Shown one piece after another: positions 1,781-53,493 of a stretch of 64,000 bases of DNA (the stretch's first letter is position 1; every line of letters starts with the position of its first letter). A program made the position numbers and the translations under genes. The notes under the pieces were generated by a model. That model was not told where the DNA came from. It did not search any database and worked only from the letters and a program-made list of their open reading frames with translations. Source of the stretch: Clostridium sp. CAG:590 (GTDB taxonomy: Bacteria > Bacillota > Clostridia > Lachnospirales > Lachnospiraceae); the NCBI GenBank assembly GCA_000431135.1, contig HF987891.1, forward strand, positions 7,286 to 71,285, in the 5' to 3' direction.

Positions 1781-1900
1781 GGTCATAATTATGACCAAAA
1801 ATTCATAAATGGGTATCGTGTAGCCATAATTGTACATAAAATATACATAAATGTATCTGGAATATTCATAAATGGCACTGTTTTGTTTATTGAAATTCAT
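1781..1900. promoter_or_regulatory. Perfect 16-bp palindrome GGTCATAATTATGACC followed by iterated CATAAATG(G) motifs in a 480-nt AT-rich intergenic region
   Basis: Read directly; a related element recurs at 41869-41950 (see findings). Confidence 0.3.
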
Positions 1901-28144: not shown

Positions 28145-28284
28145 AACATGATCCTCTTTTCTGCGTTATTGGGGCAGACGATGATCGCCCCTGCATCATA
28201 TTATAAAATTTATAAAATGCACGTCAATACGCATAGAACCGGAAACGTCAGCAAAATATTACAAAAAAATACCGGAATAGAGGA

Positions 28285-37398: not shown

Positions 37399-37523
37399 AA
37401 GAAGCGAAGGATTTACCTTCGCTTCTCTTAATGAGGGGGGAGAATTCGAGTACAACTTAATGTACTCATATGAAAAGTTCTTACGATGTATAGTATATTG
37501 GGAATGTGTGAACAAAACGTGAA
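37399..37523. repeat. Repeat R1: terminator hairpin + G-tract + palindrome GAGTACA..TGTACTC; about 90% identical to R2 at 39034-39154
   Basis: gaagcgaagg-tttacc-ttcgcttc hairpin, then aatgaggggggagaattcgagtacaacttaatgtactcatatgaaaagttcttac... Confidence 0.75.
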
Positions 37524-37562
37524 GAAAATCTTTCGGTTTTGTGAAATTTATAAAAATAAAAT

Positions 37563-37590
37563 GAACCAAATAGTATTATCCAGCGTCTAA
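37563..37590 (+). promoter_or_regulatory. Putative ECF-type promoter for the sigma/anti-sigma operon
   Basis: GAAC - 17 nt - CGTCTAA, 34 nt upstream of the sigma ATG. Confidence 0.4.
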
Positions 37591-37623
37591 TCTATGTAAC
37601 CGGTTATAGAAAGAAGGGATGAA

Positions 37624-38085
37624 ATGACGAATTTGACCAAAGAAGAGCTGGAAGAGCTTATATTAGATAATCAAGAATATTTATATAGACTTGCGTTCTC
37701 TTACATGAAAAATGATGCAGATGCTCAAGATGCAGTTGGGGAAACGATTGTAGTAGCGTATGAGAGAATTTATACATTAAGAAAAAAGGAGAGTGCAAGA
37801 GCATGGCTTATGAAAATTCTGATCAATCAATGTCTATCATTGCTTCGGAAACATAAGAGAGAATCAATGTTGCCATTATCAGAAGAAGCGAGTATTCCTT
37901 TTCAATATGATGAGCTTTGGTTAGTCGTTATGGAATTACCAGTTGCTTTGCGATCAATCGTTGTATTGTACTATTATGAGCAATTTACAACCAAAGAGAT
38001 TAGTAAAATTCTTAAGATTCCGGAAGGAACTGTAAAGTCTCGTTTGTCGCGGGCAAGAGAGCAACTGTATATATTTCTTGAGTAA
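37624..38085 (+). CDS. ECF-subfamily sigma-70 factor
   Basis: 153 aa; region 2 and region 4 HTH (TTKEISKILKIPEGTVKSRLSRAR). Confidence 0.8.
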   Translation: MTNLTKEELEELILDNQEYLYRLAFSYMKNDADAQDAVGETIVVAYERIYTLRKKESARAWLMKILINQCLSLLRKHKRESMLPLSEEASIPFQYDELWLVVMELPVALRSIVVLYYYEQFTTKEISKILKIPEGTVKSRLSRAREQLYIFLE

Positions 38086-38097
38086 AGGAGGAATAGT

Positions 38098-39006
38098 ATG
38101 AATAAATCAGATGTAGAGATGGATATGGTGATTTTGGCTTATACCAATTGCCAAACGATAAATCTTCCTAACGGTTACACGGAAATGTTGAATCAGAGAA
38201 TATCGCAAGCAAAGGGAAAGGAACATTTAGACTTTTATTTAAAAAAAAGAATAGCGGTTATTGCTTTATTCTTGATATGTGTGTTTGGAGTAGGTGTCAG
38301 TTTTTCTACGGAGCACTTGTTTCAAGGAAGGGGACATTCATCACATTACACAGGGAAAAAAGATGTGAAAGATATACAAACATCTGGGGCTGAAGCAGAG
38401 GGGGTAAAAACACCGAAGAAACAGGAAAATTCGGTGGATTTTGATGCAGAGGATGTAGCAATACAAATGACGATGAATTTATTTCAAAAGCAACGGGAAG
38501 ATTTACAGGTTGTAAATAAGAATGATCAAGTATTAGATGGAGAGACACAACCAACACAATCGTACGTTTCTATATGTAGTCAGTCTGATCAGATACAATA
38601 TACAATTCAGGTAGATTTAAAGGCACAACAGGTGGTCAGTATTGATTTAGAAGGGGATATTACTAACTATGCAACTGATATATCTGAGGATCAGGAGTTA
38701 GAGCAGTCGTTATACGCACAGGCACAGACTCAAAATGATATATTTACAAAGAAGCAATACTCTGGCAGTCGATGTTATATCCAAACAACGATTGATAAAG
38801 ATTTGGGTATATTACAGCATGGTACAGTAAATTATTGCTTTGAGACCACACAGGATATGATATCTATAATCAGTTATAGCTATACAACAAACACCTTTTT
38901 CCAATATCGTTTGCTTACAAAGGAGGCATTTGAAGGATGGAAGAACCGGATGATGCAACAGTGTGAGGATAGTAAATGGGAGTTTGTATACAGGGAGATC
39001 AACTAG
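38098..39006 (+). CDS. Single-pass membrane protein, putative cognate anti-sigma factor
   Basis: 302 aa; short cytoplasmic N-terminus, TM (IAVIALFLICVFGVGV), large extracytoplasmic domain; coupled 12 nt after the sigma gene. Confidence 0.5.
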   Translation: MNKSDVEMDMVILAYTNCQTINLPNGYTEMLNQRISQAKGKEHLDFYLKKRIAVIALFLICVFGVGVSFSTEHLFQGRGHSSHYTGKKDVKDIQTSGAEAEGVKTPKKQENSVDFDAEDVAIQMTMNLFQKQREDLQVVNKNDQVLDGETQPTQSYVSICSQSDQIQYTIQVDLKAQQVVSIDLEGDITNYATDISEDQELEQSLYAQAQTQNDIFTKKQYSGSRCYIQTTIDKDLGILQHGTVNYCFETTQDMISIISYSYTTNTFFQYRLLTKEAFEGWKNRMMQQCEDSKWEFVYREIN

Positions 39007-39282: not shown

Positions 39283-40032
39283 GTGACAAAAAAAGCAAAG
39301 ATCAGTTTTTTGATCGTAGTATGGAGTATTGTAGCGATACAAATGTATGTTAATTATGAACAACGCATTCGGTTGCGGGAAGAAGCGGTAACAGCATTTT
39401 CTGTGGAACAGGACAAAGCACCGGAAGAGACCATTCATGGGTATGGAAAATTTGGAGATATGGAACTGACAGATGCAAATAAGAAAAAAATGTTAATAAA
39501 TTTTGCGGATAAATTAGGAATTACGGATGGATATACTTTCCGGAATGGAACGGGAGATCATTTTACCAAAAAGATGTTGGTGAAAAAGGGAAAATATGCA
39601 ACGGTTGAGTTGCAACTCATTAGTTTGGATCAGGACGGAGCGGAACCGGAACAATACATTGTGACCAATATAACAACCAGACAGGAAATGGAACCGGCAA
39701 TTTCATTGTATCGGAAAGTAAAACGAATTTATGAGGAGATTGGTGTTGAGGCACAGGTTAGCATTGAGGTTGCAATGAAGCAGGCGGGAAATATTGCTTT
39801 AACAGGCAAAGAAAGTGTACCGGAGCAGATATTTGCGCTTGTAAAGGCAAAAAAAGTGGATGAAATAACAGAAAATAATATCTGTACAGTGTACGGTTAT
39901 ACATGGTTGGAAAAGGATTATTTGAAGTTGAACAATAAAAAAGTCAATATCCAGATCGTAATGTCATATGATGAAAAAGAGGATGAGACGTATATAAAGA
40001 TAGGAGTTCCGCTTGTAAACACTTCTTATTAA
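39283..40032 (+). CDS. Membrane-anchored/secreted hypothetical protein (YwmB/DUF1779-like architecture)
   Basis: GTG start with GGAGG RBS; N-terminal TM; 249 aa. Confidence 0.45.
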   Translation: MTKKAKISFLIVVWSIVAIQMYVNYEQRIRLREEAVTAFSVEQDKAPEETIHGYGKFGDMELTDANKKKMLINFADKLGITDGYTFRNGTGDHFTKKMLVKKGKYATVELQLISLDQDGAEPEQYIVTNITTRQEMEPAISLYRKVKRIYEEIGVEAQVSIEVAMKQAGNIALTGKESVPEQIFALVKAKKVDEITENNICTVYGYTWLEKDYLKLNNKKVNIQIVMSYDEKEDETYIKIGVPLVNTSY

Positions 40033-40186
40033 ACAACATATTTTGCTGACTGCAAAAATTTATAAAATATTTTTCAAAAATTTTTTCTGTTTTGCCATGG
40101 TTTGGCAAGGGTGCGTGATAAGCTTGATTCATAAACGATGTGAGACGGCCGTCACAGGATAATAAGAAAGGATTAAGGTGAAGAAT

Positions 40187-40294
40187 ATGAGAAAGATCAA
40201 GAGTGCAGTTGAGGATGTATGTGTATATGTGGTATGTGGAGTTTCATTTCTTGTTTTTTTAGGGGAAGTCCTGAATTGGATGATGTTTGTATAA
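40187..40294 (+). CDS. Candidate 35-aa hydrophobic small protein
   Basis: AAGGTGA RBS 7 nt upstream; MRKIKSAVEDVCVYVVCGVSFLVFLGEVLNWMMFV. Confidence 0.25.
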   Translation: MRKIKSAVEDVCVYVVCGVSFLVFLGEVLNWMMFV

Positions 40295-40442
40295 ATAGTT
40301 GCATTTTAACGGAAAACTGTTTATAATAACCTCGTTATGGCTATACTTAGGATAACAGGTGCATAACCGGATGCTCTTGTCTCAGGAACGACAGAGATTA
40401 TGGTATATGCATAGGAAATTATAATTAGGAGGAATTACAATT

Positions 40443-40655
40443 ATGGCACAGACAGTGAATAAAGATATGTTGATTGGTGAGATTATTACAATTGATCCGG
40501 GTAACGCAGCAATTTTGATGGCAAATGGGATGCATTGTCCGGGTTGCCCTGCTTCTCAGGCTGAGACATTAGAGGAAGCAGCACAGGTTCATGGAATGGA
40601 TGTAGAGGTATTACTTCATGACATTAACGAGTACCTGGCAAAGAAAGACGCATAA
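40443..40655 (+). CDS. DUF1858-domain small protein (hybrid-cluster-protein-associated redox disulfide domain)
   Basis: 70 aa; MHCPGCP motif; AGGAGG RBS. Confidence 0.7.
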
Positions 40656-40746
40656 TATTTTAAGTCGCGGCATATAAGTAATCCCTTGGATAGAAGATTC
40701 TTTCCAAGGGATTTTTGTGTCTTGTAAATGTTTGTAATGCAATGCA

Positions 40747-41580
40747 TTAAATGCTTGCTAAAGTACGAATTGCATCATCCTTAATGATCAATTTGAAATG
40801 CTCTGAGAAATAATATGGCATTGCATAATTTGCTTTTACTTTGGTTCCATATTCACTCAACAGATTGCATGCACGCTGATAATTTTCAATATTGTCTGAC
40901 TGGTTATTCACGATCAGATAATAGTGGTTGTCAAATGGACTCTTATATAAAGAATTGGCATCTTTATAGATTGGAGCAACCATAGCGGCTGCTTTGCTGA
41001 TATCGTTGATATTCTGGAAAGAGAAAATGCGGTATCCGGCAATCTTAGCCTGCTCTTTTTTCTTATCTTTGTTCTTATCAGACTTCTTTTTGTTGGAATT
41101 CTCTCTGATTGCAGCGGATAGTGGAACGAAGTTCGGATTCTTACCGGATTCGGTCTGTTTCTTTACTTGTTCAATATTCTCTACAATATCTGAGATTGTT
41201 TCTAATAAAGATTCCGGTGATGATATAAAACCGGTGTCTTCATCGTCGTCGGAATCAGAGTCATCGTTGTCATCATCAATTTCAATGTTAGCATATTTTG
41301 AAAAACGGGAGAAACGTGTATCCAGTTCTTCCGGATCATCTACCTTTGTTATAATTAAGATCAGACAATCAGGAGAGACAGGAATCGCTTCGATCATAAG
41401 AGGAATATCATTTACCTCAAATCCCAATTCGTCAGCAGCCTGTTCCATCATATCACGAAAAAGCTCTTTCGCTTTGTCGGTTCCATAAGCTAATTCGTTC
41501 AACATAAGCTCTCTGTCTGCTAAGTCTTCTTTGTTCAGTGTGCAGCGAATCTGATTCTCGCTTAGTCTTTCTAACTTCAT
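40747..41580 (-). CDS. mecA: Adaptor protein MecA
   Basis: Start at the internal ATG (MKLERLSENQIRCTL...) with AAGGAG RBS; N-terminal MecA domain, acidic/Ser linker, C-terminal ClpC-binding domain. Confidence 0.8.
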   Translation of the reverse strand: MKLERLSENQIRCTLNKEDLADRELMLNELAYGTDKAKELFRDMMEQAADELGFEVNDIPLMIEAIPVSPDCLILIITKVDDPEELDTRFSRFSKYANIEIDDDNDDSDSDDDEDTGFISSPESLLETISDIVENIEQVKKQTESGKNPNFVPLSAAIRENSNKKKSDKNKDKKKEQAKIAGYRIFSFQNINDISKAAAMVAPIYKDANSLYKSPFDNHYYLIVNNQSDNIENYQRACNLLSEYGTKVKANYAMPYYFSEHFKLIIKDDAIRTLASI

Positions 41581-41868
41581 AGAATCATCTCCTTTATATG
41601 TGGCAGATATGATATCTGCATAAACATGCAAAAATGTCTGGTTACAGAAGAAATCAGGGATTCTTTCTGTAGGTGTCCTAAACAATAGCATATTTTCAAC
41701 AGAAATGCAACTTTCTTATAGTTTAGTATAGCATAATCTCAGTAAAAAATGATTAGATATTTATGGATTTCTATGAAAATACCGCTCTATTTAAGTGTAT
41801 CACAAAATGTGATCAAGTAAAGTATCTGCGCAGGAGTTCATAAAAAAAACATAATTATGTACAAAAAA

Positions 41869-41950
41869 ACATAAATGGTACAAATTTGTACATAAATGGT
41901 ACTGAAATAGTCATAAATGGAACTATTTTGAACATTGAAAGTCATAAAAT
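41869..41950. promoter_or_regulatory. Palindrome ACATAATTATGT followed by three CATAAATGG repeats at about 21-22 nt spacing plus palindrome GTACAAATTTGTAC
   Basis: Read directly; related to the element at 1781-1900. Confidence 0.3.
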
Positions 41951-42221
41951 TACTTAGTATAGTATATGTAGAGTTTATGAATAGAGTTTAAAATACTTGA
42001 TATATCCGGATGCTCTATCTCGAAGAATTCTAATATATAATATGCAGACTCCATGTTACATGTTATACACCACATTCGCACAATTTGGAGTCAGAAAGGA
42101 GGAGATGCAACAGAAGATACATATGTGATCATTCATTAATTGGGAAGAAAAAAGAGTGTGTCAAAGAAAATAAAAAGATATAGTTGACATTAAAATGCAT
42201 AGAAATTCGTTCGAAACAAAA

Positions 42222-42258
42222 GAGAATGAAGGGCTGTCCGGAAAGGGCAGCCCGGATT
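42222..42258 (-). terminator. Terminator downstream of the amidase gene
   Basis: GGGCTGTCC-ggaaag-GGCAGCCC with a T-tract on the minus strand. Confidence 0.5.
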
Positions 42259-42274
42259 TGATTAATATTAGAAG

Positions 42275-44983: not shown

Positions 44984-45230
44984 TTCAAGATATTTTTGCA
45001 ATAAGGAATGTGAATATTTTCCGTGCCATCCGGGGGCAGATCCGGAGCACTTCAACTGTTTGTTCTGTTATTGTCCGATGAATCCTTTTCCGGACTGTTT
45101 GGGACATCCGGAATATATCGTCTTAGCAGATGGAAGCAAGATAAAAGATTGTACGAATTGTCTGTTTCCACATGATCCGGATCATTATGATCAGATTATG
45201 CAGTTTTTACGGGACGATCATACGATTTGA
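44973..45230 (+). CDS. Cysteine-rich small-domain protein
   Basis: 85 aa; CxxxCxxxPC ... CLFCYCP ... CTNC Cys pattern. Confidence 0.5.
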   Translation: MTNSSRYFCNKECEYFPCHPGADPEHFNCLFCYCPMNPFPDCLGHPEYIVLADGSKIKDCTNCLFPHDPDHYDQIMQFLRDDHTI

Positions 45231-45403
45231 CTGGATATATGTCTCGTTTGTGTAATCTGATTTTCTTATCAAAGTCTGTTTTTTTCATTTTTATTTTCAA
45301 AAAACCATCATCCGTATTGTAACAAAAATGTAATATTTTCGACTCGTTTTCTTTACGAAATATGCGGAAAATAGCTGAAAAATGCCGATCTGCTCACGGA
45401 TAG

Positions 45404-49511: not shown

Positions 49512-49692
49512 ACTTCTCTTATTCAGAGTGGTGGAGTCAGAAGGGACTACGAAGCCACGGCAACCCCATTGTTATTTGGAAGGTGCCGGCCTGAAGCGAG
49601 TTGAGATACTCGGTCAATAAGAGGATTTGGATATAGTGAGCACATAAACTTCAAATCCTCGTGGATTTGGAGTTTTTTTGTAGGGTAATCTT
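49512..49692 (+). ncRNA. SAM-I (S-box) riboswitch with intrinsic terminator
   Basis: P1 CTCTTATTC...GAATAAGAG, GGTGGAG, GGCAACC, GGTGCC conserved blocks; terminator CCAAATCC-tcgt-GGATTTGG + U7; TTGACC/TATGAT promoter about 70 nt upstream. Confidence 0.7.
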
Positions 49693-52256: not shown

Positions 52257-52566
52257 AAAAACCTCCCTTGTGTAAACATACATATAATTATATGCAATAT
52301 ATAAAACAATTATAACATATCTGAAATGCAGATACTAGAAGTTTCTATGTCCAAGGTATAAGTTTAAGAAGCAGTTTGGTCAGGAAAGATGGAAATGACT
52401 TAGTATAGAATTCAATTCCCGCACAAAAAGATGGATATACGTTGTCAACAATGATACAATCATGTTAAGTATCAGATAGTACTTGTACGGAAACATACAT
52501 TGTTATTTGCGTCTGACTATTGTACCGCGTGCAGACTAATGTAGATTAAGACGGGGGAATTATATT

Positions 52567-53493
52567 ATGAGGAAGATAATCGGGATTATTCTGGAAATAT
52601 TGTTTATATGGATGTGTGTAATTCCTGTATGTGCACAGGATGGGGGATGTGTTGTTGTCAAAGACCGGGCTTCCTTTTATCAGGAGATCTCGAAGCAGAT
52701 CCTGTCACACCAGAAAAGTAAGGTGTATATTACGGATGTAGGATCGCTTGGAAATGATCTGGATGAATTATTAAATGGGTATTATTATCATTATGATGCG
52801 GACAATCCCACTGCAAGTGGAAGTTATCTGTGTTACTACATGGAGAGTTGGAAGGTAGAGTACTATAAAGGCGGTAGATACGGAGACGGACATAACTGTA
52901 AGATGGAGGTTATAATATCTTATAGTTATCCAAAGAACGAAACAGATATCTATTTAAAAAAAATGAAAGAGCTTGCCGCAAGCCTTAAAAAGGATACAGA
53001 CTATAAGAGTGTTAAAGCGGTACACGATTATCTTATCAAGAATTATGAGTATGATCACAGCATGGTGAACCGGTCAGATTATGATGGATATATGACCGGG
53101 AAAATGGTATGCCAGGGATATTGTACGGCAGCATTTTATCTGTTGTCGGAGATGGGGATACCTGCAAGGGTTGTATTGGGCTCATCCGAGGATTACCAGA
53201 AGGATACCGATCATGCGTGGAATGTGGTCCGGGTAGACGGTAAATGGTACAATATGGATGTCACATGGGATGACGGCGGCTGGCTGCCGGATTATACCTT
53301 CTTTTTGAAGAGTGATGCAGATTTTTACCAGCATACGAGAGAGGGATATTATGACTATGACAAGGATATGGCATTGTCTTCTTATCCGGTAAGAGATCCG
53401 AAACGGACGATTGGCGGATGTATTATTTTTCTTGTGATCATAATAGATGCAGGCATGATAATCAGGAGAAAGAGACGGCAACAAGAGGAATAG
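52567..53493 (+). CDS. Transglutaminase-like domain protein (secreted, C-terminal TM)
   Basis: Signal peptide; Cys (VCQGYCTA), His (DHAWNVV), Asp (MDVTWDD) catalytic-triad spacing; C-terminal hydrophobic anchor + RRKRRQQEE. Confidence 0.7.
   Translation: MRKIIGIILEILFIWMCVIPVCAQDGGCVVVKDRASFYQEISKQILSHQKSKVYITDVGSLGNDLDELLNGYYYHYDADNPTASGSYLCYYMESWKVEYYKGGRYGDGHNCKMEVIISYSYPKNETDIYLKKMKELAASLKKDTDYKSVKAVHDYLIKNYEYDHSMVNRSDYDGYMTGKMVCQGYCTAAFYLLSEMGIPARVVLGSSEDYQKDTDHAWNVVRVDGKWYNMDVTWDDGGWLPDYTFFLKSDADFYQHTREGYYDYDKDMALSSYPVRDPKRTIGGCIIFLVIIIDAGMIIRRKRRQQEE

Follow-up and report, generated by a model that had tools for sequence, protein, structure and literature searches.

Two promoter-proximal arrays of helically phased boxes in Clostridium sp. 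CAG:590: a candidate operator on bent DNA and a neighboring candidate small RNA

Clostridium sp. CAG:590 is a spore former and a common member of the Lachnospiraceae of the human gut. The 64-kb stretch of its DNA analyzed here (herein referred to as the window) contains two intergenic regions that carry arrays of short, regularly spaced sequence boxes. The first (R1, near 1784–1918) lies between a ppiB (cyclophilin) gene, assigned by Pfam, and a divergent operon encoding a DUF6382/FHA protein, a PP2C phosphatase, a Ser/Thr kinase and an 1870-aa Ig-like protein. The second (R2, near 41839–41963) lies between mecA (41580–40747, minus strand) and a cwlD-like amidase (Amidase_3) gene, in a neighborhood where precomputed Pfam annotation places several spore genes (SpoIIT, SipL, Amidase_3, and Hydrolase_2, a spore-cortex-type lytic enzyme). 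An ECF-type sigma-70 gene and two or three adjoining genes are inserted between the NUDIX and SpoIIT genes in the window (approximately 37400–39000) and in strain L007 (12572–15627), and are absent from nine other strains. Elsewhere in the window, an ordinary SAM riboswitch (RF00162, 69.5 bits; 49516–49623, plus strand) precedes the S-adenosylmethionine synthetase gene.

Both arrays read on the plus strand. The R1 array (1784–1896), delimited by its sequence, a phase table, motif enrichment, the identity of boxes relative to spacers and predicted curvature, consists of CATAATTAT at 1784, CATAAATGG at 1804, CATAATTGT at 1825, CATAAATGT at 1846, CATAAATGG at 1867 and TATTGAAAT at 1888, with a further box, CATAAAATA, interleaved at 1835. 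The R2 array (41839–41941), delimited by sequence, enrichment, box versus spacer identity and predicted curvature, consists of CATAAAAAA at 41839, CATAATTAT at 41850, CATAAATGG at 41870, 41891 and 41912, and CATTGAAAG at 41933. The final element in each case (TATTGAAAT at 1888; CATTGAAAG at 41933) is a pseudo-box that contains the -35 element of a promoter, and the R1 array is longer by one unit than that of R2. An earlier sequence-only reading had described iterated, helically phased sites in both regions at a spacing of about 21–22 nt; the phasing is confirmed, and the spacing is tighter than that range, with a first step of 20 bp (1784 to 1804; 41850 to 41870) and every later step exactly 21 bp in R1 and R2 alike. 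Each unit comprises a 9-bp box and a 12-bp spacer (boxes at 1804, 1825, 1846 and 1867 in R1 and at 41870, 41891 and 41912 in R2).

The likeness between R1 and R2 in array and promoter is not random. There are six copies of CATAAATGG in the window against 1.05 expected, a count that none of 100 shuffles reached, and five of the six fall in R1 and R2; the palindromic core CATAATTATG occurs three times against 0.23 expected, the third copy (57680) lying within a long ORF. Motif counts are thus well above chance. Clusters of at least three CATAA[AT]T, CATAAA or TCATAA motifs per 120 bp are confined to R1 and R2 within the 64 kb, and box dyads at one-turn spacing number five against 0.9 expected, four of them within the two regions or next to R2 (the fifth, at 45200, is unrelated). 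The three palindromes described previously, GGTCATAATTATGACC (1781–1796), ACATAATTATGT (41849–41860) and CATATAATTATATG (52281–52294), are all in place and perfect; the last, however, proposed as a related element in the degV promoter, is a TATAAT -10 hexamer that reads alike on the two strands; the ribosome-binding site of degV follows shortly after it, and no boxes accompany it. The resemblance of the two regions likewise stands, at a slightly lower figure than the one given for it (about 80% over about 45 nt): the quoted 45-mers are identical at 34 of 45 positions (76%), and a promoter-anchored ungapped comparison gives 53 identities in 73 positions. Similarity spans the distal CATAATTAT to the -10 and then ends, and hence the shared part is a promoter with its upstream regulatory DNA rather than a duplicated gene segment. 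These comparisons support a shared ancestry or a shared constraint for R1 and R2.

At its proximal end each array merges with a predicted core promoter on the plus strand. The R1 promoter (herein P2) consists of TTGAAA (1890–1895), a 17-nt spacer and TAAAAT (1913–1918), and that of R2 of TTGAAA (41935–41940), a 17-nt spacer and TATAGT (41958–41963); in a promoter scan both score 10/12 as matches to the sigma-70 consensus. An additional box of the form TCATAAwwT (TCATAA) lies within the spacer, between the -35 and the -10, in both (TCATAATTTT, 1897–1906, in R1; TCATAAAATT, 41942–41951, in R2). The core ACATTGAAAGTCATAATTT, including the spacer, a part of a promoter that is normally free of constraint, is identical or nearly so in R1 and R2 of the window, in R2 of the related species L011 and L153 and in R1 of L133 (where the same core appears as CATTGAAAGTCATAATTTG...TAAAAT), a constancy that contrasts with coding DNA that is only 72–80% identical to that of the window in all other species fetched. 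The -10 of R2 and the sequence downstream of it are kept in the nine species examined.

The R1 array thus ends in a plus-strand promoter upstream of the FHA-kinase locus, where the sequence-only reading had placed it. Because a conserved candidate proximal promoter (P1; TTGCTT, 2047–2052, 17 nt, TATAAT, 2070–2075; plus strand) sits approximately 130 bp downstream, the R1 module is best regarded as a candidate second promoter that would serve this operon from a more distal position. P1 was read from the sequence, its -35 matching the consensus at 3/6 positions only so that the consensus promoter scan passed over it, and the block that contains it is kept in the R1 orthologs compared (L133, L134 and L135) whether or not an array is present. 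The leader between the array promoter and P1 (1919–2075) contains a Shine–Dalgarno sequence at about 1974–1980 and a two-codon ORF (ATG CCT TAA, 1989–1997), whose counterpart at the same place has eight codons in L133 and seven in L134. On the minus strand, the promoter scan places a candidate promoter for the divergent ppiB at 1730–1758 (TTGTAA, 17 nt, TAAAAT), with 25 bp between its -35 and the distal limit of the R1 array.

Since mecA is encoded on the minus strand, the R2 promoter is directed away from it, towards what we propose to be a small RNA of approximately 290 nt (41970–42263, plus strand), a candidate identified by its conservation, terminator and fold. This unit occupies the interval between mecA and the amidase gene, with which it is convergent, and comprises a predicted hairpin (stem arms 42047–42053 and 42086–42092, loop GTTATACAYCACATATGCAC), a Shine–Dalgarno sequence (AAAGGAGG, 42095–42102), a tiny ORF (42105–42128, MQQKIHM*) and an intrinsic terminator (42231–42253), all on the plus strand. 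The elements conserved across species are a 5′ block (ATGTAGAGTTTcTTAATAGAGTTC...CCGGATGCTCTAT), the hairpin, and a strong Shine–Dalgarno sequence followed by an ORF of 1–7 codons, which in relatives is reduced to M* or MP*. The minimum free energy of the candidate RNA has a z-score of -2.57, and the outer stem recurs in five of nine species with some of its pairs altered, the folds that back the hairpin all being of single sequences; MAFFT alignments of 7–9 RNA sequences, which were poor, yielded no consensus structure with RNAalifold. An Rfam search of the R1 and R2 regions with E-values up to 10 returned only noise, leaving the candidate RNA without an Rfam family, and in sequence comparison the R1 leader showed no homology to this RNA (all z <2.6). 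An 11-mer, CCGGATGCTCT, is common to the candidate RNA (42006–42016) and the leader of the DUF1858 gene (40367–40377), and beside this likeness the R1 leader carries CCGGATAAC at 1931–1939; both could be chance. The mecA–amidase interval hence appears to encode a candidate RNA and not simply a mecA promoter, and this conserved, unannotated RNA may be more novel than the array itself.

The description of the second array as lying upstream of mecA is therefore not sustained: the shared promoter faces a conserved RNA with a terminator, and an inversion in a relative separates array and gene. In L011 the segment from mecA to DUF1858 is flipped (L011 2600–4720 versus window 40000–42000), and after this inversion the array remains with the RNA and not with mecA; both inversion junctions carry TAATTATG, half of the CATAATTATG palindrome. 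Like ppiB at R1, mecA seems to have a promoter candidate of its own, read from the sequence at 41725–41775 on the minus strand, with an extended -10 (TGCTATACT, 41733–41725). A dyad scan finds a box dyad (TCATAGAAATCCATAAATA, 41775–41750, minus strand) at approximately -47 and -58 of this candidate, and the block around it is conserved across species.

The R2 comparison covered nine species, namely that of the window and eight relatives (L011–L014 and L151–L154) whose MecA proteins are 78–88% identical to that of the window. Within the source species R2 is nearly invariant across 10 strains, with a polymorphism by which the middle box reads CATAAATAG in four of them. The complete module (ACATTGAAAGTCATAATTT with upstream boxes) is present at R2 of L011, at R2 of L153 as a short array and at R1 of L133, and partially in L152, which has two boxes 21 bp apart; in relatives further removed, promoters are kept with no array at R2 of L012, L013, L014, L151 and L154 and at R1 of L134 and L135. 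A stringent module pattern recovered from JGI metagenomes R1 of the source species (five contigs), its R2 (one contig) and R2 of a relative (two contigs), and the viral contigs of IMG/VR yielded chance matches and nothing related. No third copy was seen in the 64-kb window or in the JGI metagenomes, and the module was found at these two loci alone, in the source species and a few relatives. A box-pair scan of genome contigs (CATAAATGK-N12-CATAAATGG) hit at least 118 stretches; among the matches listed, nearly all are pairs that arose by chance or belong to unrelated tandem repeats of 21 bp from other phyla. Such unrelated repeats containing CATAAATGG occur in L022 and L046 (Nostoc) and in L026, L034, L041, L054, L094 and L124 (Ignavibacteria, Zixiibacteriota and others); examples are AAATCATAAATGGGTTCCCCG arrays in Nostoc and, in several phyla, CACCATAAATGGTTCGAsGCT arrays found beside conserved flanking sequence.

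Among the species that have the module, the letters of the box differ: CATAAATGG in the window, CATAAAAAA and CATAGAAAA every 10.5 bp in L133, and a mixture in L011. Both L133 and L011 carry CATA boxes on every helical turn, L133 contains an exact 21-bp tandem duplication, and the only constants across species are TCATAA with its A-tract and the phase. Orthologous arrays scarcely align upstream of the last box. Paralogous arrays, in contrast, are approximately 80% identical over 76 nt (R1 versus R2 of the window) and 80% identical over 61 nt (R1 of L133 versus R2 of L011, paired here as paralogs though possibly not of one species), and the better alignment of paralogous than of orthologous arrays suggests concerted evolution. 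The R2 array has at its distal end a two-box dyad (GTTCATAAAAAAAACATAATTAT, 41836–41858, plus strand) that appears to be ancestral; its 21-nt consensus, kTTCATrAAAAATACATAATTT, is found in all nine species, in intergenic DNA that has otherwise diverged. The distance from the dyad to both flanking promoters varies among the species, and after the L011 inversion it remains on the mecA side. Retention at a variable distance from the promoters is the behavior that a protein-binding site would be expected to show.

Two properties of the arrays bear on their function. Conservation is far stronger in the boxes than in the 12-bp spacers, whether R1 is compared against R2 (33/36 identical in boxes versus 28/47 in spacers; Fisher p = 0.001) or units are compared within R1 (47/54 versus 28/72; p = 3e-8) or within R2 (27/27 versus 17/36; p = 2e-6). 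The arrays are also predicted to be intrinsically curved, with helix-phased A/T tracts that lead up to the -35. In the AA-step periodogram the maximum lies at 10.5 bp and not at 21 bp, with R1 and R2 ranking second and third in the window, and a wedge model (with Bolshoy-type parameters) makes R2 the most curved of 12,777 120-bp windows and R1 the fourth distinct region; R1 falls in the top 0.03–0.4% of window 120-mers in curvature and 10.5-bp AA periodicity. Box-less orthologous promoters (L012, L014, L152, L154 and L134) are predicted to be curved as well, and that of L151 is not. Very strong 10.5-bp AA periodicity or predicted curvature is also found at intergenic positions without CATAAATGG boxes (near 45366, at 53446–53476 and at 28176).

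We hypothesize, with about an even chance of being right, that R1 and R2 are operator arrays for a direct-repeat-binding regulator on bent DNA; the binding of a protein, its identity and the sign of regulation are what we infer from these features. CATAAA-type boxes are stacked on one face of DNA predicted to be intrinsically bent, with A/T tracts and a G/C-containing step every 10.5 bp and the CATAAATGG 9-mer every 21 bp, and the stack begins at approximately -115, crosses the -35 and reaches into the spacer between the -35 and the -10 of a near-consensus, plus-strand promoter of the sigma-A type. An oligomeric, direct-repeat-binding protein would fill the boxes cooperatively and wrap the pre-bent DNA, and would thereby place the RNA unit (R2) and the FHA/kinase operon (R1) under common control. 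Because the core promoter is near consensus and boxes lie over both the -35 and the spacer, we lean toward repression, or a switchable block, as somewhat more likely than pure activation. The earlier proposal of one regulator binding cooperatively fits the iterated, phased sites and the preferential conservation of boxes over spacers; the Fur/PerR-type identity suggested for that regulator does not survive the comparisons below.

The alternative to which we give most attention, possible though we doubt it, is that the arrays need no dedicated regulator and are curved, UP-like elements, in which helix-phased A/T tracts generated by 21-bp tandem duplication aid RNA polymerase binding at two strong promoters through alpha-CTD contacts or upstream wrapping. 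The 10.5-bp periodicity and curvature ranks of both regions are what such an element predicts, as are the predicted curvature of the five box-less orthologs, the preservation of phase while box letters turn over between species and the exact tandem duplication in L133. There is also a precedent in the plc promoter of C. perfringens, where upstream phased A-tracts are reportedly bound by the alpha subunit. Like plc-type elements of strong Firmicute promoters, the arrays have A/T tracts once per turn upstream of the -35, strong predicted curvature, and orthologs that keep these properties despite sequence change; unlike them, they extend over 8–10 turns rather than approximately three, and they combine an exact 9-mer at a 21-bp period with a conserved box in the promoter spacer. 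Bending requires no exact 9-mer and is hence insufficient on its own to account for the conservation of the boxes, which stay identical beside spacers that fall to approximately 40–47% identity. The curved-element reading also leaves unexplained the TCATAA conserved between -35 and -10 and the nine-species dyad at variable distance, the arrays reach to approximately -115, past the usual range of alpha-CTD, and the curvature itself depends on the wedge parameters used and is not predicted for L151. The operator reading alone would explain the exact 9-mers beside drifting spacers, the spacer box and the dyad. Against it we count the rapid turnover of boxes between species, which a purely structural requirement would also fit, the strong predicted curvature of array-less relatives upstream of the same promoter, and the occurrence of CATAAATAG in the middle R2 box of 4/10 strains.

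Other known regulatory systems offer partial parallels. Sites of LytTR-type response regulators (AgrA, ComE, HdrR/BrsR) consist of 9-bp direct repeats separated by 12 (11–13) bp of AT-rich spacer that activate the adjacent promoter, the repeat pair ending 4–11 bp, mostly 10, before the -35 and reading approximately ACCnCTTAy when taken along the promoter strand (PMC6193735). The 9-bp box and 12-bp spacer of the arrays reproduce this documented architecture (PMC6193735), and on the opposite strand the box (CCATTTAT) resembles the consensus; the promoter-strand box CATAAATGG does not, and in the opposite-strand orientation the nearest minus-strand promoter lies at a distance of 25 bp in R1 and of over 100 bp in R2. 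Instead of two repeats there are four to five, together with a pseudo-box that covers the -35; 14 bp separate the end of the last full box from TTGAAA (versus 4–11 bp; PMC6193735), relatives have boxes every 10.5 bp, the gene context differs, and Pfam finds no LytTR domain among the genes at 1–30 kb or approximately 31–52 kb, all of which makes a LytTR-type site improbable. Cognate LytTR genes usually lie close to their sites and regulate themselves. Still less probable is that successive boxes form overlapping, tandem sigma-E or sigma-K-like sporulation promoters. The host is a spore former with spore genes nearby, TCATAAA resembles the B. subtilis sigma-E -35, CATAnnnT resembles a mother-cell -10, and the next box comes 15 nt further on; yet the -10 matches at 5/8 positions only, the spacing differs from the canonical 14 by a single base, the first base that is required is missing from several boxes, and the array ends in a good sigma-A promoter that is conserved. 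The sequence-only reading had also raised a small repeated intergenic element, and two like copies in direct orientation 40 kb apart, paralogous arrays more alike than orthologous ones and an inversion breakpoint at the TAATTATG palindrome might all suggest a dispersed repeat or mobile element (REP- or MITE-like sequences, iterons or arm-type recombinase sites). We consider this very unlikely: dispersed repeats of the REP or MITE kind have many copies per genome at non-orthologous sites, there are only two clusters in 64 kb, the metagenome matches are limited to R1 and R2 of the source and R2 of a relative with nothing related in IMG/VR, relatives carry both loci at orthologous positions, the similarity takes in a functional-looking promoter, and there are no terminal inverted repeats and no rep or recombinase gene, with housekeeping genes between the loci. 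The 21-bp period would fit plasmid iterons in particular, direct repeats of 19–22 bp that accompany a rep gene, an AT-rich unwinding region or DnaA boxes; these were rejected on the flanking genes (ppiB, the FHA operon, mecA and the amidase), these being chromosomal housekeeping genes. A Fur/PerR/Zur-family metalloregulator box centered on CATAATTATG is scarcely credible. The palindrome is AT-rich and contains CATAAT, a hexamer that fits the NATWAT pattern of the Fur family, but boxes of this family are 7-1-7 inverted repeats near TGATAATNATTATCA, TTATAATNATTATAA or TCGTAATNATTACGA, whereas the palindrome is 6-0-6 and its best matches to these consensus sequences, at 3–6 mismatches, are equaled by 7 to 443 background sites. 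Moreover, it is absent from the R1 ortholog in L133, direct repeats at 21 bp are unlike the pattern of the family, and no metal-homeostasis genes are adjacent. Activator sites of the AraC/XylS type consist of two direct repeats in a 21-bp register, the proximal one over the -35; the arrays share the register, two unlike half-turn subsites per unit and a proximal unit over the -35, and differ in their near-consensus promoter, their many more than two units and the lack of an adjacent AraC gene. AbrB sites contain several TGGNA motifs with AT-rich connectors of 4–5 bp (PMC3738160, PMC3025583). Both kinds of region are long and AT-rich with motifs about once per turn, and R2 reads TGGTA-N5-TTGTA-N6-TGGTA...TGGAA-N5-TTGAA; however, the strict bipartite TGGNA (AbrB/Abh) site occurs in neither array, against 31 times in the window, the relaxed tandem form is found in R2 and not in R1, and the arrays of relatives have no full TGGNA (no TGG in L133; TGGTC only in L011 and L153). 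No match was found to the sites of CtsR, CodY, ArgR/AhrC, DnaA, Spo0A, WalR, PhoP/PhoB, ComK, SinR or ScoC.

If the arrays are operators for a direct-repeat-binding protein, we suggest, more tentatively, that a regulator limited to a few related Lachnospiraceae species captured two older promoters by box amplification. Its regulon would have two members, the small RNA and the FHA/PP2C/Ser-Thr-kinase operon. Gene conversion, or co-evolution with the factor, would hold the two arrays of any one species close to each other as those of different species drift apart. A search of the annotated parts of the window found no regulator gene near either locus.

The feature is thus an ordinary kind of regulatory DNA, reinterpreted in part, and its wider significance depends on whether a factor binds. 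If none does, the arrays are textbook curved upstream DNA of little further interest; under either reading, the annotation of the mecA–amidase interval should change to include the candidate RNA. Should a factor bind, a conserved RNA that has not been described before would be linked to a Ser/Thr-kinase signaling operon in a common spore former of the human gut, the pair would constitute a concrete regulon of two promoters, open to testing, in a family whose regulation is almost entirely unmapped, and the arrays would provide a clear example of an upstream control region built and remodeled by 21-bp tandem duplication over an older promoter.
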